Below are positions 3,609-30,819 of a DNA stretch of 32,000 nt, one piece after another. The stretch is from the NCBI GenBank assembly GCA_964640155.1, contig CAZXEQ010000005.1, positions 1 to 32,000 on the forward strand. Direction: 5' to 3'. The number at the start of each line of letters is the position of its first letter. The first letter of the stretch is position 1. Both the position numbers and the translations under genes were made by a program. A model generated the notes under the pieces. The model had not been told where the DNA came from and made no database searches. It saw only the letters and a list, made by a program, of their open reading frames with translations. Source of the DNA: an uncultured bacterium (GTDB taxonomy: Bacteria > Auribacterota > JACPWU01).

Positions 3609-5249
3609 ATGTCAACGCTCATAGAAACCTCCAAAGATACATTTCTTCAAAATATCGCAACAGAATCTGTCAATGAACGTATTTATGCAAAAGACGGGTT
3701 TCATGTTGAAATTATTATTTCCAAAGAAAATTTGAGACCTCTGGCTCAAAGATTTCTACAGCAACAATATTTTCTGGAATGCCACACGATTGTTGATTAT
3801 CCCGACCGATTTGAATCTTGTTATCAATTTAATCGATGGGATAAAACTCATCGCGTGCTCGTCAAAGTCAAAACAGACAAAGCTAATCCTCATTTCCCAA
3901 CCATTTCAGATATTTACGGCGTTGCTAATTGGTATGAACGTGAAGGATATGATTTCTTTGGTGTTATTTTCGACAATCATCCTAATCTTACAAGACTTCT
4001 TCTTCCAGAAACAGCCAACTATCATCCCCTGCGTAAAGATTTTAAGGGAGAAGGCATGCCCACGGATGTGGAAGATGTTTTAAATTTGATGAAATATGAA
4101 GATGCCAAATTTGAAAAGACCAATCCAGAACTTCAGAAAAAATATCAAAAAGACTATTTTATCAACATGGGGCCTCAGCATCCCAGTACTCATGGGGTTT
4201 TGAGGCTTCTTTTGCATTTAGATGGGGAAAGAGTTTTAGGCGCTGAACCTGTCATCGGATATTCCCATCGTGATCATGAACGCATGGCTGAATATAAAAC
4301 CTATATTCAGTTTCTTCCTAATATGGGGCGTTTAGATTATGTAGGAGCCATGGCCTATAATTTTGGTTATGTAGGTTTAATCGAAAAAGCAATGGGACTC
4401 GTCCCTTCCCCACGTTCTGAATATATTCGAGTGCTTACCACAGAGCTGAATCGTATTGCCAGTCATCTGCTTTGGCTCGGAACTTATTTGCTGGATCTTG
4501 GCTCTTTTAGTCCCTTCTTTTATTGCTTTGATGATCGTGAAACCATTTTGGATGCTTTGGAAACCCTTACCGGTGAACGACTGACTTACAATTATTTTCG
4601 TTTTGGAGGTGTCGCATTTGATTTGCCTGAAGAATTCGAAGCTTCTGTTAAAGCCTTTATCCCAAAAATGAGACAACGGCTCAAAGATTATAAAACCTTG
4701 ATTGAAAAAAATATTATTTTCATCAAACGCACCAAAGATATTGGAATTTTGACCAAAGAAAATGCTTTATCTTTTGGAGTCACAGGTCCCACACTCAGAG
4801 CCTGCGGTGTTCCTTATGATTTAAGAAAAATTGAACCTTATTCGGTTTATTCAGAAATGAATTTTGATATTCCTACTTCTAATGGTGGCGATACTTTTTC
4901 TCGTTATCAAATTCGTTTGGCAGAAATTGAACAAAGTTTAAGAATCGTAGAACAAGCTTTAGCAAAGATGCCTTCTGGCCCGATTAAATCTGAAAAAGCT
5001 CCGAAAAGCGCTGTGGGATCTGTGAAAGTGCCTCAAGGTGAAACTTATTTTGCTGTGGAAGCTGCTCGAGGACAATTTGGGACTTATTTGGTGAGTAACG
5101 GCACCACCAATCCTTATCGATTGAAATTGCGTTCACCTTCTTATGCAAATTTGAGTGCACTTGAGACTTTATTAAAAGGACATCTGATTGCAGATGTCGT
5201 TGCAGCCTTAGGCAGTATTGACGTAGTCATGCCGGAAATTGATAGATAA
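3609..5249 (+). CDS. nuoCD: Fused NADH-quinone oxidoreductase subunits C and D
   Basis: 546 aa. The N-terminal third is NuoC-like (ANWYEREGYDFFGV). The remainder is NuoD-like (NMGPQHPSTHGVLRL, C-terminal IDVVMPEIDR). Confidence 0.92.
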   Translation: MSTLIETSKDTFLQNIATESVNERIYAKDGFHVEIIISKENLRPLAQRFLQQQYFLECHTIVDYPDRFESCYQFNRWDKTHRVLVKVKTDKANPHFPTISDIYGVANWYEREGYDFFGVIFDNHPNLTRLLLPETANYHPLRKDFKGEGMPTDVEDVLNLMKYEDAKFEKTNPELQKKYQKDYFINMGPQHPSTHGVLRLLLHLDGERVLGAEPVIGYSHRDHERMAEYKTYIQFLPNMGRLDYVGAMAYNFGYVGLIEKAMGLVPSPRSEYIRVLTTELNRIASHLLWLGTYLLDLGSFSPFFYCFDDRETILDALETLTGERLTYNYFRFGGVAFDLPEEFEASVKAFIPKMRQRLKDYKTLIEKNIIFIKRTKDIGILTKENALSFGVTGPTLRACGVPYDLRKIEPYSVYSEMNFDIPTSNGGDTFSRYQIRLAEIEQSLRIVEQALAKMPSGPIKSEKAPKSAVGSVKVPQGETYFAVEAARGQFGTYLVSNGTTNPYRLKLRSPSYANLSALETLLKGHLIADVVAALGSIDVVMPEIDR

Positions 5250-14581: not shown

Positions 14582-14640
14582 TTTAAAATTTCTCTATGTT
14601 TTATAATGATCATGTCATCAAAATCTACTTTTTCATAGAT

Positions 14641-14821
14641 GAGGGTGGCACAAATCCTGGGCCCCTTTCCCGCAAGGTCCTATGCGGACGAAGGCAAAGG
14701 ACTCCCGATTTTATACCCCTTTAAACCTTTTCTTACAAACACATCAGGAGAATGCTCAAGTCACGGGCGCTGGAACCGCAGGACCTGAGGACAAAGGGGT
14801 AAGATTTGTGACAGGACCCTC
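14641..14821. ncRNA. Candidate structured RNA A: 181-nt rod-like element
   Basis: About 34 Watson-Crick pairs join 14641-14687 to 14776-14821: 6 bp, 8 bp, 7 bp, 2 bp, then 11 bp (7+4 around a 2-nt bulge). A C/U-rich, poorly paired apical segment of about 56 nt lies at 14708-14763. GC is 53% by hand count. The strand is not resolvable because there are no G-U pairs. Confidence 0.45.
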
Positions 14822-14859
14822 TACTTTTGAATAAGAACACCCTTTGATCAATAGCATCC

Positions 14860-16311
14860 TTAATGATGATGCAAAACTTTATAAATTTTATCAGCAAGTT
14901 TTCTGGAAATGCCTGTTGCCTTTTGCAACTCATCCATAGATGCTTTCTTCATCTCTCCGATAGAACCAAAATGCTTTAGCAATTCTGCTCTTTTTACAAG
15001 ACCAACTCCAGATATATCATCTAAAATAGATTCTTTTAATTTCTTTTCTCTAAGAATTTTGTGATAGGTTACAGCAAAACGATGTGCTTCGTCCCGAATT
15101 CTTTGAATCAAATGCAGAGCGCCAGAATCTTTAGCCAATCGAAGAGGTTCATTAGAAAAAGGTCGATAAATTTCCTCATAACGTTTAGCCAAGCCAATCA
15201 CAGGAAGCGCTGTTAAACCCATTTCTTGCAAAACACTAAAAGCTGAAGAAAGTTGCCCCTTGCCCCCATCAATCAAAATCAAATCAGGGAAAACACCTCC
15301 CTCTTCTTTTAAGCCTCGATAACGCCTCCCCACCACCTCCTTCATCATGGCAAAATCATCAATGCCCAAAACACTTTTGATACGAAAACGTCTATAAAAC
15401 CGCTTATCGGGGGCACCTTGAAAAAAATGTACCATGGAACCTACAGCCTCTTTTCCAGAAAAATTAGAAATATCAAAAGCTTCCATTCGAATAGGCGGAT
15501 TTTCTAGGCCCAGAACCTCTGCCAGAGACTGCATCTCTTGCACAGCATGAGACGAGATCCTTTTAAAATTACGTAAAGTATTCATCCGAGTTCCTGCAAT
15601 ATTTTCAATCGCCCTCATCCGGTCTCTGAGTTGAGCTGCCTTTTCAAAATCTAAATTCTTAGAGGCTTCTTCTATTTGCTTTTTCATCTTAAAAACAAGC
15701 TCTTGAGATCGACCTAATAAAACTTGGCAAGCATGGTCAACAGATTGTCGATAATCCTCTTTTGAGATATTTCCCACACAAGGAGCTGAACACCATTTCA
15801 TCATTTGATAAAGACAATGGTCATAATCAGGTTTTCTAGGATCGACTAAATTACATGTTCTAATCTTAAAAATTTTTTGAAGTTGTTCCACTGTTTTTCG
15901 AAGTGCTTGTGAGTTGGTATAGGGCCCCAGGTATAATGCCCCATCGGGTTTTTTCGTTCGGGTGATCATAAACCGAGGAAAAGATTCGTTGAATGTCACT
16001 TTAAGTAAAGGATAAGTTTTATCATCTCTATAAGAGACATTGTACTTTGGTTTAAATTCCTTGATATATTGACATTCTAAAATCAAAGCTTCTTGAGGAG
16101 ATTTGAGTACAATAAAATCAATGTCTCGAACGGCCTCAATCATAGCTTCTGATTTTGGAGAGCCTTTTAAATCTCGAAAATGAGATAATAGCCTTGAGCG
16201 CAATCGAACCGCTTTACCTACATAAATAACCTCCCCTAACTCATTACGCATGAGGTAAATCCCACATTTTTGAGGAATTTTATGTATTTTTTCTTTCAGT
16301 TCCAATCGCAT
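14860..16311 (-). CDS. uvrC: Excinuclease ABC subunit C (compact form)
   Basis: GIY-YIG N-terminus (GIYLMRN..GEVIYVGKA), UVR motif (FEKAAQLRDRMRAIENI), endonuclease domain (LILIDGGKGQL) and C-terminal (HhH)2. It is only 483 aa. Confidence 0.9.
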   Translation of the reverse strand: MRLELKEKIHKIPQKCGIYLMRNELGEVIYVGKAVRLRSRLLSHFRDLKGSPKSEAMIEAVRDIDFIVLKSPQEALILECQYIKEFKPKYNVSYRDDKTYPLLKVTFNESFPRFMITRTKKPDGALYLGPYTNSQALRKTVEQLQKIFKIRTCNLVDPRKPDYDHCLYQMMKWCSAPCVGNISKEDYRQSVDHACQVLLGRSQELVFKMKKQIEEASKNLDFEKAAQLRDRMRAIENIAGTRMNTLRNFKRISSHAVQEMQSLAEVLGLENPPIRMEAFDISNFSGKEAVGSMVHFFQGAPDKRFYRRFRIKSVLGIDDFAMMKEVVGRRYRGLKEEGGVFPDLILIDGGKGQLSSAFSVLQEMGLTALPVIGLAKRYEEIYRPFSNEPLRLAKDSGALHLIQRIRDEAHRFAVTYHKILREKKLKESILDDISGVGLVKRAELLKHFGSIGEMKKASMDELQKATGISRKLADKIYKVLHHH

Positions 16312-19691: not shown

Positions 19692-19844
19692 AAAACCTCT
19701 CAAAAAGGTGCCAAACATGTCCTTATAGTCCCCGTAAGGGGATGCAAGGCATCCACAAGCGACTGCGGAGGCGTACGTTTAATGGTACGCCGCACAAAGA
19801 AGCGCAGTGGGTAACGCAGCAGATGGACCTTTTTCAGAGGTTTT
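19692..19844 (+). ncRNA. Candidate structured RNA B: 153-nt multi-helix element 16 nt downstream of the preceding stop codon
   Basis: An 18-position closing stem (17 WC pairs) joins 19692-19709 to 19827-19844. It encloses a core that is 56% GC by hand count. Core hairpins: 19729-19742 (GUAA loop), 19740-19754, 19770-19791, and 19762-19767 paired with 19803-19808. UUUU follows the 3' arm. Strand is assigned from context only. Confidence 0.5.
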
Positions 19845-20793: not shown

Positions 20794-21591
20794 CTAACGA
20801 TTCTGATCTACAAGCTCTTGAGCACTTTTTTCGCCTATTTCAATTGATTCTTTAGCTTTGCGAAAATCATATAGCTGAACATGATCAATAGAGGGTCGAA
20901 TCAAATAGTCTGGAGGATTTTGTAACAAAGTTAATTCTGCAATTCTTGATTCCATCATGTAGAGACTACGCAAAAGAGTATCACTCATTAAAAAAACCCC
21001 ATTCAACGATTTACGAGGCATCATTTTGACACGCGTAGTTACATCCACAGCAATAACCGAAGCTTTACTCAATTGACGAACCTGATATACAGGAACAGGA
21101 TCAGAAAGACCTCCATCAATTAAAAACTGTCCTTCTATTTCTTTAGGCTGAAAGATCCCAGGAATTGAAATACTGGCTCGTACTGCTTCCACAACCGATC
21201 CGTTTTTTAATGCAATTGCTTGGCCTGTCTCTAAATTCGTTGCTGTCACACAAAGAGGAATTTTTAAATCTTCAAATTTTAAATCTCCTAAAATATCTCT
21301 CAAAAAATTTTCGATACGATCCCCTTTTAGAAAGCCCCTCTTAGGCAAAGACAAGTCAAGAAATGTAAGCCATTTCTTCCAATCTATTTTCAAAACAAGT
21401 TTTTCAATTTCAAGAGCGGATAAACCAGAAGCATACAGACAAGCAATTAAAGCCCCCATGCTAGCACCTGAAAGTGCTTCAATACGAAATTTTTCTCTCT
21501 CTAAAACTTTTAAAACTCCAACATGAGCAAAACCACGTGCACCACCAGAACCGAGAGAAAGACAAATAGAGGAAGGCAAATAATCTGACAC
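20794..21591 (-). CDS. Patatin-like phospholipase (RssA/NTE-like)
   Basis: 265 aa with a GSGGARG oxyanion motif, a GASMGA nucleophile elbow (GxSxG) and a DGG catalytic Asp motif. GTG start. Confidence 0.85.
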   Translation of the reverse strand: MSDYLPSSICLSLGSGGARGFAHVGVLKVLEREKFRIEALSGASMGALIACLYASGLSALEIEKLVLKIDWKKWLTFLDLSLPKRGFLKGDRIENFLRDILGDLKFEDLKIPLCVTATNLETGQAIALKNGSVVEAVRASISIPGIFQPKEIEGQFLIDGGLSDPVPVYQVRQLSKASVIAVDVTTRVKMMPRKSLNGVFLMSDTLLRSLYMMESRIAELTLLQNPPDYLIRPSIDHVQLYDFRKAKESIEIGEKSAQELVDQNR

Positions 21592-21597
21592 CTGAGA

Positions 21598-21786
21598 TTA
21601 AACCTTTTTCTCAGGGTTATCTTTTTTTATAAAAACGACATGCATGTAGTTAGCACAATGAGGACATTCAATAATAGAAGTTCTGCGAGTGATTTTTACT
21701 TGAGTTTGACAATGAGGACACTGCGCTTCAGAGTTTTCAGAAACAGGTATAGCAACATAGATCGTACTTTTTGATTTTGGATCCAT
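21598..21786 (-). CDS. Small zinc-ribbon protein
   Basis: 62 aa with two CPHC pairs (CPHCQTQ...CPHCANY). ATG start. Its stop lies 7 nt before the patatin start. Confidence 0.55.
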   Translation of the reverse strand: MDPKSKSTIYVAIPVSENSEAQCPHCQTQVKITRRTSIIECPHCANYMHVVFIKKDNPEKKV

Positions 21787-21848
21787 GTGTTTATTATACT
21801 CTTTTTTTAAAAAACTCCAGATAAGAATTTAATTTTAATCACGATAAC

Positions 21849-21987
21849 ATCGGTGAATAGAGCGTGAAGACCATTGGAGCTCGAGCGAGCATGGAACCCC
21901 GATAAATATCGGGGGAAGCGAGAGCTCCTTTGAGTTCGTTTACCTCGCCGGGGGAAACGAACGTGTCTGAATACTCTATTCACCGAT
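21849..21987 (-). ncRNA. Candidate structured RNA C: 139-nt three-way-junction element
   Basis: A perfect 14-bp closing stem joins 21849-21862 to 21974-21987, extended by AGAC/GUCU (21868-71 with 21965-68). Stem 21876-21882 pairs with 21922-21928 and is capped by the hairpin CCCCGAU-AAAU-AUCGGGG (21897-21914). A separate 8-bp hairpin spans 21934-21962. GC is 52% by hand count. Strand is assigned from flanking gene orientation only. Confidence 0.5.
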
Positions 21988-22005: not shown

Positions 22006-22755
22006 TTACACTTTTATTTCAAGCCCATCTTTGGCCAAAACCACTTTCCCTGAATATATTTTTCGAACAATTTTTAAAATGTTAATTCGATCACTAGGAG
22101 GATAAAAATGGCTCAATACCAATTGTTTAGGAGAAGCTTTTTGAGCTAAATGGGCTGCCTGGGTCGGGGTTAAATGCCCCTTCACTTTCATAGAGTCAGG
22201 GAAAGAACATTCCAGAATAAGAAGATTTACATCTTTGCTTAATTGAATTAAATTTTCTGAAAAATCCGTATCTCCTGAGAACACAACAGATTTTCCTCTT
22301 TCTTCAAAACGAAAAGAAACACTTTCAGCGATATGTTGAGGCTGACAAGTTTTAACAAAAACGCTCCCTATTTTGAACTGACTGCCCCTCATTTCCTTAA
22401 TGATCAATTCATACTTCTTAGGAATCAACCAACCTTGATACGTTTTTGATAAATCATTAAAAAACTTCTTAAACCCAGAACCTCCCACAATCGTTAATTT
22501 CTTACGACGTGAGTTAGTCCCATATTTACTTGCAAATAAGAAAGGAACTAAATCCGTCACATGATCAGGATGAATATGGGTATAAAAAAGTGCATCAATC
22601 TGATTTAACGTATATCCTGCTTGCAATATTCTCGTTAAAGTTCCTGCTCCACTATCTATCAAGAATAAATTTTTATTAGTTTTTAGTAAATAGCCAGGAG
22701 AACCTCGTTCTAAGCAAATAACACCTGTTCCAGAACCAAGGACAATCACCTTCAT
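22006..22755 (-). CDS. MBL-fold metallo-hydrolase
   Basis: HIHPDH (HxHxDH) motif, N-terminal VLGSGTG and C-terminal LSHF. I prefer the start at 22755, an ATGA overlap with the nagZ stop, over the longer ORF start at 22827. Confidence 0.8.
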   Translation of the reverse strand: MKVIVLGSGTGVICLERGSPGYLLKTNKNLFLIDSGAGTLTRILQAGYTLNQIDALFYTHIHPDHVTDLVPFLFASKYGTNSRRKKLTIVGGSGFKKFFNDLSKTYQGWLIPKKYELIIKEMRGSQFKIGSVFVKTCQPQHIAESVSFRFEERGKSVVFSGDTDFSENLIQLSKDVNLLILECSFPDSMKVKGHLTPTQAAHLAQKASPKQLVLSHFYPPSDRINILKIVRKIYSGKVVLAKDGLEIKV

Positions 22756-24263
22756 GAAGACATTCCACAAAGAAGCTGAATTGCTCGATGAATTTGTGGG
22801 GTACGAAATCCGTAAGTTTGAATGCATGTCGTTGAGGAATTAACAAATTGAACATCATAGGGATTTCTTAAAAGAACTACTGCTAGATGAGAGAACTTTT
22901 GCTGAAGTTTCAGCAAAAGTTCTCTCTGAGAAGAAAGATGAACCGCATCGAAGCAAAACATCACTATGGGTGAATTTTTAGAAAGTTTCTCGAGTTTCTC
23001 AGAAAAATTATCTTTGATCAAATCAAACCTTATTTCTTCAACATCATACTTATAAGAATTAAAAGTTTTAGAAAAAAAAGAAGGATTTTCCAAAAGAGTG
23101 GCTTCAAAAAAATATTTGTTCTGTACAGAAGAAAAGTCTGGGATAAGAATTAAAAATTTTTGGTTAGTTGGATGAGAAAGAGGAAAAGAACCTTGATGAA
23201 CAAATTCGACAGATCTTTCAGAAATTTTTTTGGCTAGTTCAGAACCACTCTCTTTTCCAACACTTAAGGGATTCTTTCGTAAATCCTTTAAGACGGTCTT
23301 TAATCTTAAAACACTTTTCTCTAGATTTTCCCATTTAAGTCTCTTCTTTTCATAAGCTTCTTGAAGGGCATTATAACCCTTCTCAACCAAATCTTTCTGA
23401 TGACAGATTAAAACAAGATCATGTCCCACTTCAACTGCTCGGACCACCGCTTCTTCAAATGGGAAACGGCGAAGAATGGCTCCCATTTCTAAATCATCTG
23501 AGAAAATAATATTTTTAAAATTCAATTCTTCCCTTAAAAGTGTTGTCACAATTTTTTTTGAGAAAGTTGCTGGTAATTCTTTCTCAAAAGCGGAATAAAC
23601 CACATGACTGGTCATCACAAATGAAATACCCGAATGAATCGCTTTTTGAAAAGGTTGAAGATGAAGATTTTTCATCTCTTCAAACGAACAATTCACAAAG
23701 GGAAGATCTTCATGAGCATCTACTGTCGCTGCCCCTTTTCCAGGGAAATGCTTCGCCGTTGCCCCTACTCCTTGAGATTGCATTCCTGTCATCAAAGCAC
23801 AGCCCAACTGAGAAACTATTCTTGGATCTTGGCCAAAAGAACGAATTGTAATTCCTGGATTGAGGGTAGGAGTTAAAACATCTAAGACAGGGGCTAAGTT
23901 CACGTCAATCCCCAGCGAGCGAAGTTCATATCCCATGATACGCCCTTGTACTTGCGCCCAAACTTCGGATCCTGCTTTTCCTAAAGCCATATTTCCAGGG
24001 AAAGACGTAAAACCATCTTCAAGCCGCTGCACAAGACCACATTCATGATCAATGGTAAAAAAAACTTCTTCTCCTAAAAGAGTACGAATCTGCTGAATCA
24101 AATTTTTTAATTGAAGAGCAGAGTCAATATTTCTAGAAAAAAAGATAATTCCAGAAGGACGGATTTTTGAAAGAAAAAGTTTTAAATCCTCATTTAAAAC
24201 TTTCCCTTCAAAACCTATCACCAAATGGCACCCCACATGAAGAGAAGTCATCTTAAAATCCAA
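22752..24263 (-). CDS. nagZ: Beta-N-acetylhexosaminidase, glycoside hydrolase family 3, with an extra C-terminal domain
   Basis: 503 aa with KHFPGKG and SDDLEMGA motifs of the GH3 N-terminal domain. The ORF opens with TTG; the ATG at 24251 is an alternative start. Confidence 0.85.
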   Translation of the reverse strand: MDFKMTSLHVGCHLVIGFEGKVLNEDLKLFLSKIRPSGIIFFSRNIDSALQLKNLIQQIRTLLGEEVFFTIDHECGLVQRLEDGFTSFPGNMALGKAGSEVWAQVQGRIMGYELRSLGIDVNLAPVLDVLTPTLNPGITIRSFGQDPRIVSQLGCALMTGMQSQGVGATAKHFPGKGAATVDAHEDLPFVNCSFEEMKNLHLQPFQKAIHSGISFVMTSHVVYSAFEKELPATFSKKIVTTLLREELNFKNIIFSDDLEMGAILRRFPFEEAVVRAVEVGHDLVLICHQKDLVEKGYNALQEAYEKKRLKWENLEKSVLRLKTVLKDLRKNPLSVGKESGSELAKKISERSVEFVHQGSFPLSHPTNQKFLILIPDFSSVQNKYFFEATLLENPSFFSKTFNSYKYDVEEIRFDLIKDNFSEKLEKLSKNSPIVMFCFDAVHLSSQRELLLKLQQKFSHLAVVLLRNPYDVQFVNSSTTCIQTYGFRTPQIHRAIQLLCGMSS

Positions 24264-30699: not shown

Positions 30700-30704
30700 A
30701 AATA

Positions 30705-30792
30705 CGGGTGACGCTCGACGGGGCGCCCTACCGAGCGCAACTTTTGCTGAGCACGGTGATGGTCCCGATGTGACATCGGGGGACCCGCCACC
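30705..30792 (-). ncRNA. Candidate structured RNA D: 88-nt GC-rich leader/intercistronic element abutting the comEC start codon
   Basis: 68% GC by hand count. Hairpin 30712-30717/30732-30737 carries a GGGCGCCC palindrome in its loop. Hairpin 30755-30792 contains CCCGAUG-UGA-CAUCGGG. An alternative closing pairing joins 30705-09 to 30783-87. The element ends 5 nt before the comEC ATG, which has no SD. Confidence 0.5.
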
Positions 30793-30819
30793 TTATCAGA
30801 AAATATACTTCTATGCATG

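Follow-up and report, generated by a model that had tools for sequence, protein, structure and literature searches.

An extremely stable three-armed hairpin of 139 nt, which we call element C, occupies most of a short AT-rich spacer in the 32,000-nt stretch of DNA analysed here (the window), between the gene for an MBL-fold hydrolase and a zinc-ribbon/patatin gene pair. The interpretation we prefer, at a confidence somewhat short of even, is that element C is a young, lineage-specific insertion that resembles MITEs, Rickettsia palindromic elements (RPEs) and mitochondrial GC clusters, and that would passively give the MBL transcript a stable 3' structure. What the analysis shows is the structure of the element, its presence in the window and absence from the same site in relatives, the symmetry of its pairing between the two strands, its odd base composition and the lack of homologues in the collections we searched.

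Element C consists of a closing helix and two arms (coordinates are those of the window), and its sequence agreed exactly with the description in an earlier note on this DNA:

21849-21987: element C, a three-way junction of 139 nt
21849-21862: left arm of the terminal inverted repeat, or closing helix, 14 bp, perfect, ATCGGTGAATAGAG
21974-21987: right arm of the terminal inverted repeat, 14 bp, perfect, CTCTATTCACCGAT
21868-21871 with 21965-21968: AGAC with GTCT, 4 bp that prolong the closing helix inwards and form the junction
21876-21928: arm 1, with GGAGCTC (21876-21882) paired to GAGCTCC (21922-21928)
21885-21886 with 21918-21919: the GC/GC extension of arm 1
21897-21914: hairpin at the tip of arm 1, CCCCGAT-AAAT-ATCGGGG
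21934-21962: arm 2, GTTCGTTT-13 nt loop-AAACGAAC

The arms of the terminal inverted repeat pair at 14/14 positions, and this closing helix is one of three perfect inverted repeats of at least 12 bp with a loop of at most 150 nt in the window, where 0.62 were expected. The earlier note had described a three-way junction made of perfect Watson-Crick helices, and RNA folding reproduced this junction as both the minimum-free-energy and the centroid structure on each strand. The predicted energies were -71.3 kcal/mol for the plus strand (z = -9.0) and -60.3 kcal/mol for the minus strand (z = -7.5), and on neither strand was the value equalled by any of 200 dinucleotide shuffles. DNA parameters gave the same fold (-32.3 kcal/mol, z = -6.5). 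The fold contains 42 pairs, of which 23 are G-C, 19 are A-T and none is G-U, and all 84 stem positions are intact. An additional 4-bp helix, CCUC/GGGG with one G-U, can form in the loop of arm 2 on the plus strand only. Because the fold is the same on either strand and contains no G-U pair, the palindromy appears to be a property of the DNA; strand-symmetric pairing of this kind does not fit an RNA that has long been under selection.

Element C is not an assembly artefact, since two independent runs, SRR8893623 and SRR19881398, yielded Logan assemblies with the identical sequence (100%). The SRR19881398 assembly covers the region without a break. In that of SRR8893623, the end of one contig (L001) and the start of another (L007) fall in the loop of arm 2 (~21942-21955) with an overlap of only 14 nt; we considered this break as a sign of a repeat, but an overlap of this size in a low-coverage sample is uninformative; coverage, the hairpin or a variant could each have produced it.

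The earlier note had also put the GC content of the element at 52% in an AT-rich gap, and this held: element C has a GC content of 51.8%, the remainder of the spacer one of 21-22% and the whole window one of 37.5%. A difference of this size argues that element C was not made from local sequence. The genes and signals on its two sides all lie on the minus strand:

22006-22755, minus strand: MBL-fold hydrolase gene, 249 aa (Pfam)
21793-21798, minus strand: TATAAT, 6 nt ahead of the zinc-ribbon ATG
21598-21786, minus strand: zinc-ribbon ORF, 62 aa, CxxC...CxxC
20794-21591, minus strand: patatin-like phospholipase gene, the downstream partner of the zinc-ribbon ORF (Pfam)

Pfam agreed with the MBL and patatin identities proposed earlier, and the distances given at that time were likewise accurate: element C begins 18 nt past the MBL stop (22006) and ends 62 nt (earlier given as about 60 nt) ahead of the zinc-ribbon ATG (21786), with the TATAAT box where it had been placed. 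The MBL gene is the last of a run TPR/179-aa ORF/GH3/MBL. Since all flanking genes are on the minus strand, the likeliest transcript is the reverse complement of the sequence as the earlier note had written it, and element C, if transcribed, would be in the 3' untranslated region of the MBL gene. No T-run follows the element on either strand and a terminator scan was empty there, consistent with the earlier view that it is not a canonical intrinsic terminator. The only ORF across element C (58 aa, minus strand) had no relative among 5.8 billion protein clusters. The zinc-ribbon ORF itself is 62 aa long in the window and 96 aa in the nearest relative, L002; near 21624 it lacks, in frame, 102 nt that encode a low-complexity C-terminal stretch in L002.

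The nearest relatives of the MBL protein came from Chlamydiota MAGs, and we compared the loci fetched around its closest homologues. Over 16.5 kb, L002 (GCA_041906865.1) and the window are collinear, with 85% of nucleotides identical, and L003 is an independent Logan contig of the same type. In both of them the MBL stop and the zinc-ribbon ATG are separated by 45 nt, and the flanks align on both sides, including the TATAAT box. Global alignment of the window with L002, together with a multiple alignment, delimited a segment that has no counterpart in L002:

21821-21995: indel of 175 nt, comprising the 139-nt core and AT-rich flanks of 28 nt and 8 nt

In L048, whose MBL protein is 66% identical, the spacer is 75 nt long, AT-rich and unstructured and does not contain element C. 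L004 (69% identical), where a VIT1 gene and a spacer of 54 nt are found, is again without the element. Element C was thus missing from the orthologous spacer in all sampled relatives (L002, L003, L004 and L048), and these empty sites point to its gain in the window lineage after the split from L002. Because it is missing in relatives that keep the same gene neighbourhood, it co-occurs with neither the MBL gene nor the zinc-ribbon/patatin pair. The earlier note had suggested a dedicated, possibly conserved RNA tied to one of these gene sets and had proposed phylogenetic co-occurrence as a check; as far as these relatives go, a conserved structured non-coding RNA has to be set aside.

Alignment of the window with L002 and a folding scan revealed other elements in addition to element C. 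The window contains four GC-rich structured elements (B, A, C and D), each in a spacer between co-directional genes; those besides element C are:

14603-14862, minus strand: element B, 260 nt, 45% GC, between UvrC and a DsbH-like gene
19692-19838, plus strand: element A, between a spermidine-synthase/TPR gene and an M48 peptidase gene
30700-30819, minus strand: element D, 56% GC, a structured spacer upstream of ComEC

In a comparison with L002 of two window elements other than C, B was absent and A was conserved. Element A (z = -5.9 for the whole fold) is closed by a helix of 17 bp, is GC-rich and branched in its core, and matched no Rfam family. Because 77 of the 79 core positions (97%) are identical in L002, compared with 82% identity in the flanking coding sequence, element A is probably under constraint by strong purifying selection, which suggests that at least one such element is constrained; A is a better candidate for a functional RNA than C. 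The copy in L002 lacks a 28-nt hairpin arm (19712-19739, TCCCC-GTAA-GGGGA). At the site of element B, L002 and L048 have 12-13 nt. The closing helix of B is segmented (GAGGGT / CACAAATC / CCCCTTT with their complements), and the element is flanked by an imperfect 11-nt direct repeat, CATCATCATTA / CATGATCATTA, which was equalled in 70 of 1000 shuffles. Element D is missing in L047 and L048; its hairpin CCCGAT-GTGAC-ATCGGG (30764-30780) shares both its stem and its flanks with the arm-1 tip of element C. L002 in turn has an insertion of its own, 119 nt long, upstream of the M48 gene (8700-8830 in L002) and missing in the window. It consists of two hairpins, both long and perfect (ACTGACTGGGTCG/CGACCCAGTCAGT and ACTACAAGTCCG/CGGACTTGT.AGTAGT) and includes a 14-bp perfect inverted repeat. 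The differences in presence of B, of the arm of A and of the L002 insertion between relatives suggest that gain and loss of unique GC-rich branched palindromes are recurrent in this clade. No target-site duplication around C, B or the L002 insertion was significant, the repeat at B being the best.

The possibility that elements A-D form one repeat family was rejected, as neither local alignments with dinucleotide shuffles nor k-mer sharing were significant; the CCCGAT-N4/5-ATCGGG hairpin in C and D is the only piece that any of them have in common. An AT-rich 25-nt inverted repeat (88% complementary, 21-nt loop) at 1034-1104, between the first two plus-strand genes, looks like a terminator and is of another style than the GC-rich elements.

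The Rfam scan that the earlier note had called for gave no family match: with the Rfam 15 covariance models, among them those of hammerhead and other three-way-junction ribozymes and of riboswitches, there was no hit at the gathering score in the window and none over element C at E values up to 10, and nothing credible appeared at E up to 10 around any of the four elements. The window also yielded neither a tRNA nor a tmRNA. A single-sequence covariance model of element C (R1) recovered only element C itself in the window and 11 loci of the same clade (~130 kb). The earlier note had taken many near-identical copies across the genome as the sign of a mobile repeat; within the 32 kb of the source genome that make up the window, neither a further copy nor a similar sequence was seen.

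The scans of large collections were anchored on the exact sequence of the closing helix and inverted repeat and would let diverged relatives escape. Among 185,579 species-representative genomes (the source genome is not one of them), a search for both arms at a distance of 95-125 nt gave two matches, in Rossellomorea and Mucilaginibacter, both of which we attribute to chance because the sequence there is unrelated and AT-rich or of low complexity. A search of JGI metagenomes with one arm plus GAC returned 35 single-arm matches, none with extended similarity, and 10 of the 35 fell in one conserved GC-rich coding gene. At one of these loci (L029) the match is 7 nt longer, but the contig looks fungal and has no partner arm, so that we regard it as chance. 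Another (L027) is a 66-nt hairpin with the same 12-bp stem, located directly after a gene. We also rejected this one as chance, since any match on a hairpin arm brings the partner arm along and its interior was no closer to element C than shuffled sequences. Element C was not found in IMG/VR or in plasmid and phage collections. A protein query made of its six frames joined by X, designed to catch spurious ORFs predicted over other copies, found nothing among the 5.8 billion protein clusters.

No full-length insertion sequence with the ends of element C was seen in the scan, which allowed 95-125 nt between the arms, and no transposase was seen. The best match between the flanks of element C was no better than in shuffles (586 of 1000 had an equal score), and a 2-bp AT duplication would be indistinguishable from the ends of the palindrome itself. 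Because the only other copies of element C are 100% identical, there is no variant copy with which covariation could be tested.

How does element C compare with known palindromic elements? MITEs are typically AT-rich. Element C differs from them in being GC-rich and in that no target-site duplication, second copy or cognate transposase was found, and its interior consists of further perfect hairpins, whereas a MITE is one long imperfect hairpin. It is similar to Coxiella QMITE1/2, ERIC and Neisseria Correia elements in being non-coding and in its size of ~140-175 nt (PMC10969869), and both the 139-nt core and the 175-nt indel are within the ~50-500 bp expected of a non-coding MITE. Perfect terminal inverted repeats, a location in an AT-rich intergenic spacer, a stable predicted fold of the transcript, and filled and empty sites among close relatives (45 nt in L002 and L003, 75 nt in L048) are further points of likeness; flanking direct repeats were not found. 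In prokaryotes the copy number of a MITE can be as low as 1 per genome, the flanking direct repeats decay over time, and MITE transcripts form very stable stem-loops (PMC10969869).

Unlike element C, which is intergenic and has one visible copy, RPEs form multi-copy families and often lie in frame inside genes. As points of likeness, they are palindromic insertions of ~100-150 nt dispersed through the genome of a bacterium with an obligate intracellular life, are lineage-specific and stably folded, and belong to several unrelated families per genome; the MITE review also mentions them (PMC10969869). The mitochondrial GC clusters and repetitive hairpin-forming elements of yeast and of sponges (PMC2800124 for sponges) resemble element C in that GC-rich hairpins have invaded the AT-rich spacers of a compact genome. 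Such elements insert into one another, and nesting of this kind would give a branched palindrome like element C. They differ from it in being organellar and highly repeated.

REP and REPIN sequences are imperfect palindromes of 20-40 nt that occur at high copy number and in inverted pairs, and RAYT transposase is the enzyme that mobilises REPs. Like REP/BIME sequences, 3' stabilising stem-loops and terminators, element C is a strong hairpin just past a stop codon between co-directional genes, and as such it could stop exonucleases or RNA polymerase. It is, however, not a 20-40-nt unit and has no repeat family; its inner arms are unrelated to each other, no repeats were found, and no RAYT-type transposase was evident in the part of the window ORFs scanned for it. 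We rejected assignment to REP/REPIN on these grounds. An intrinsic terminator was rejected because no U-tract directly follows the hairpin on either strand. A hammerhead-type ribozyme, suggested by the three-way junction, was rejected because neither the CUGANGA nor the GAAA core is present in the junction strands (CAUU / UUUGA / GU) and there was no Rfam match. Element C would thus work like MITEs, RPEs and organellar hairpin elements; it is not placed in a defined family, since neither repetition nor a target duplication emerged from the sequences searched.

In the insertion reading that we prefer, a GC-rich DNA element made of nested palindromes would have entered the short AT-rich spacer from the MBL stop to the zinc-ribbon TATAAT. 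The helices would be palindromes at the DNA level, either because the element was inserted recently or because its arms are kept homogeneous as DNA. The GH3-MBL transcript, read from the minus strand, would end in the junction or run through it, so that element C would most likely be transcribed as the 3' end of this message. There, the junction of -60 kcal/mol may passively bar 3'-to-5' exonucleases and may also serve as a pause or partly insulate the zinc-ribbon/patatin unit from the MBL unit. The mobility of element C, its transcription and any effect on message stability or read-through are inferred. The lack of RNA-specific marks at element C (an Rfam match, GNRA or UNCG loops, a U-tract) is consistent with this scheme. 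Several findings speak against an insertion: its GC-richness, the missing target-site duplication, second copy and transposase, the failure of the structured elements of the window to form one family, and the conservation of element A between two species.

The alternative that survives best, although we regard it as unlikely, is that element C is a lineage-specific functional RNA. It could be a terminator or insulator without a U-tract, a 3' structure that selection has recruited to stabilise the message, or a small RNA, perhaps an antisense one, made from the plus strand and arisen or acquired in this lineage only. An extreme fold equalled in 0/200 shuffles (z = -9.0) and stems intact at 84/84 positions would be expected of such an RNA, and the plus strand folds 11 kcal/mol better than the minus strand thanks to the CCUC/GGGG helix in the arm-2 loop. 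As the neighbouring element A, of similar style, appears constrained, elements of this type can be. A weak sigma-70-like site with 9/12 matches is present on the plus strand at 21771-21800, ~50 nt upstream of element C, but promoter-like matches are at chance level (5 found versus 2.2 +/- 1.5 expected per kb). The zinc-ribbon TATAAT is kept in L002 and is thus the same in a species without element C. The orthologous site is empty in every sampled relative, the 42 main pairs include no G-U, and loop motifs typical of RNA, a U-tract and an Rfam family are all missing. No homologue was found and hence no covariation evidence. The earlier note had itself staked the idea on homologues with compensatory substitutions in the helices; none can be demonstrated, and on present evidence the dedicated RNA fails by that standard.

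Rather improbable, in our judgement, is that the palindrome grew or was perfected in place by template switching during replication (quasi-palindrome correction). Each stem would then have been perfected by copying one arm from the other, and element C would be a by-product, neither mobile nor selected. Template switching creates and maintains perfect hairpin stems (PMC8794818) and homogenises inverted repeats in bacteria (PMC5941160), and the hairpins ascribed to it share with element C perfect, strictly Watson-Crick stems (PMC8794818, PMC5941160). In favour of this reading, perfect inverted repeats of at least 12 bp are ~5-fold enriched in the Chlamydiota loci (10 seen versus ~2.1 expected from a Markov control), and several of them are inside genes. 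One has been perfected in the window lineage:

22889-22926, minus strand: perfect 18-bp palindrome with a 2-nt centre, inside the GH3 gene

In L002, 13 of the 18 positions of this palindrome are complementary. The window differs from L002 by 8 substitutions in 38 nt, all of which keep or improve pairing; at least 6 of the 8 arose in the window lineage, and the majority are synonymous. This pattern is a signature of template-switch correction of a quasi-palindrome (PMC8794818, PMC5941160), or of selection for the hairpin. Both arms have changed, however, which one switch event would not do. Further perfect palindromes, of 15, 17 and 12 bp, were observed in related Chlamydiota inside the coding regions for ComEC, UvrC and GH3, and the window and L002 have the 12-bp one in common:

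4698-4728 and 15507-15553 of L048: perfect palindromes
24176-24203 of the window and 4457-4484 of L002: perfect palindrome

For element C, template switching accounts for the perfect stems and not for the origin of 139-175 nt of new GC-rich DNA. It copies nearby sequence and needs a local template, whereas the window contains no source sequence for the 111-nt GC-rich interior, and nothing like a precursor is present at the site in the sister species.

Very improbable is a DNA-level protein-binding or cruciform site, for example a putative operator at which a dimeric regulator would control the downstream genes. The candidate is the 16-bp perfect palindrome CCCGAT-AAAT-ATCGGG, the same half-sites of which occur in element D, ~65 nt upstream of the ComEC start. 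The motif CCCGAT-N4/5-ATCGGG is present twice in the window (21898-21913 and 30764-30780; 0/100 shuffles match), each time upstream of minus-strand genes, in the same orientation and with extended flanks (ATGG..CCCGAT / ATCGGGGGA), but the shuffle test was post hoc and an unbiased local alignment of C with D was not significant (69/300 shuffles equal), the spacers are unequal (4 nt versus 5 nt), relatives with the same downstream genes lack the motif, and the other 120 nt of nested palindromes would be left unexplained.

If the ordinary reading is right and element C is a young palindromic insertion, it matters little, as another case of a small palindrome inserted in an intracellular bacterium. 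Its value would then lie mainly in the warning that, in an AT-rich genome, even a spectacular z-score for folding is no indication of an RNA gene. A broader view, to which we give a small share of our confidence, is that element C is one of a set of sequence-unrelated, GC-rich, multi-branched elements, each closed by a long helix, that repeatedly colonise co-directional spacers in one environmental Chlamydiota lineage, with four members in the window and a different one in the sister species. Such a set might be a bacterial counterpart of the mitochondrial GC-cluster and hairpin elements with a new mechanism of insertion or palindrome perfection, or its members might form a novel class of structured RNAs inside operons. 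Perfect palindromes that arise within genes could belong to the same set. If one mechanism is common to all of them, this lineage would make it practicable to follow, in a bacterium, how perfect hairpins arise, spread and occasionally become recruited, a question usually studied only in organelles and eukaryotes.
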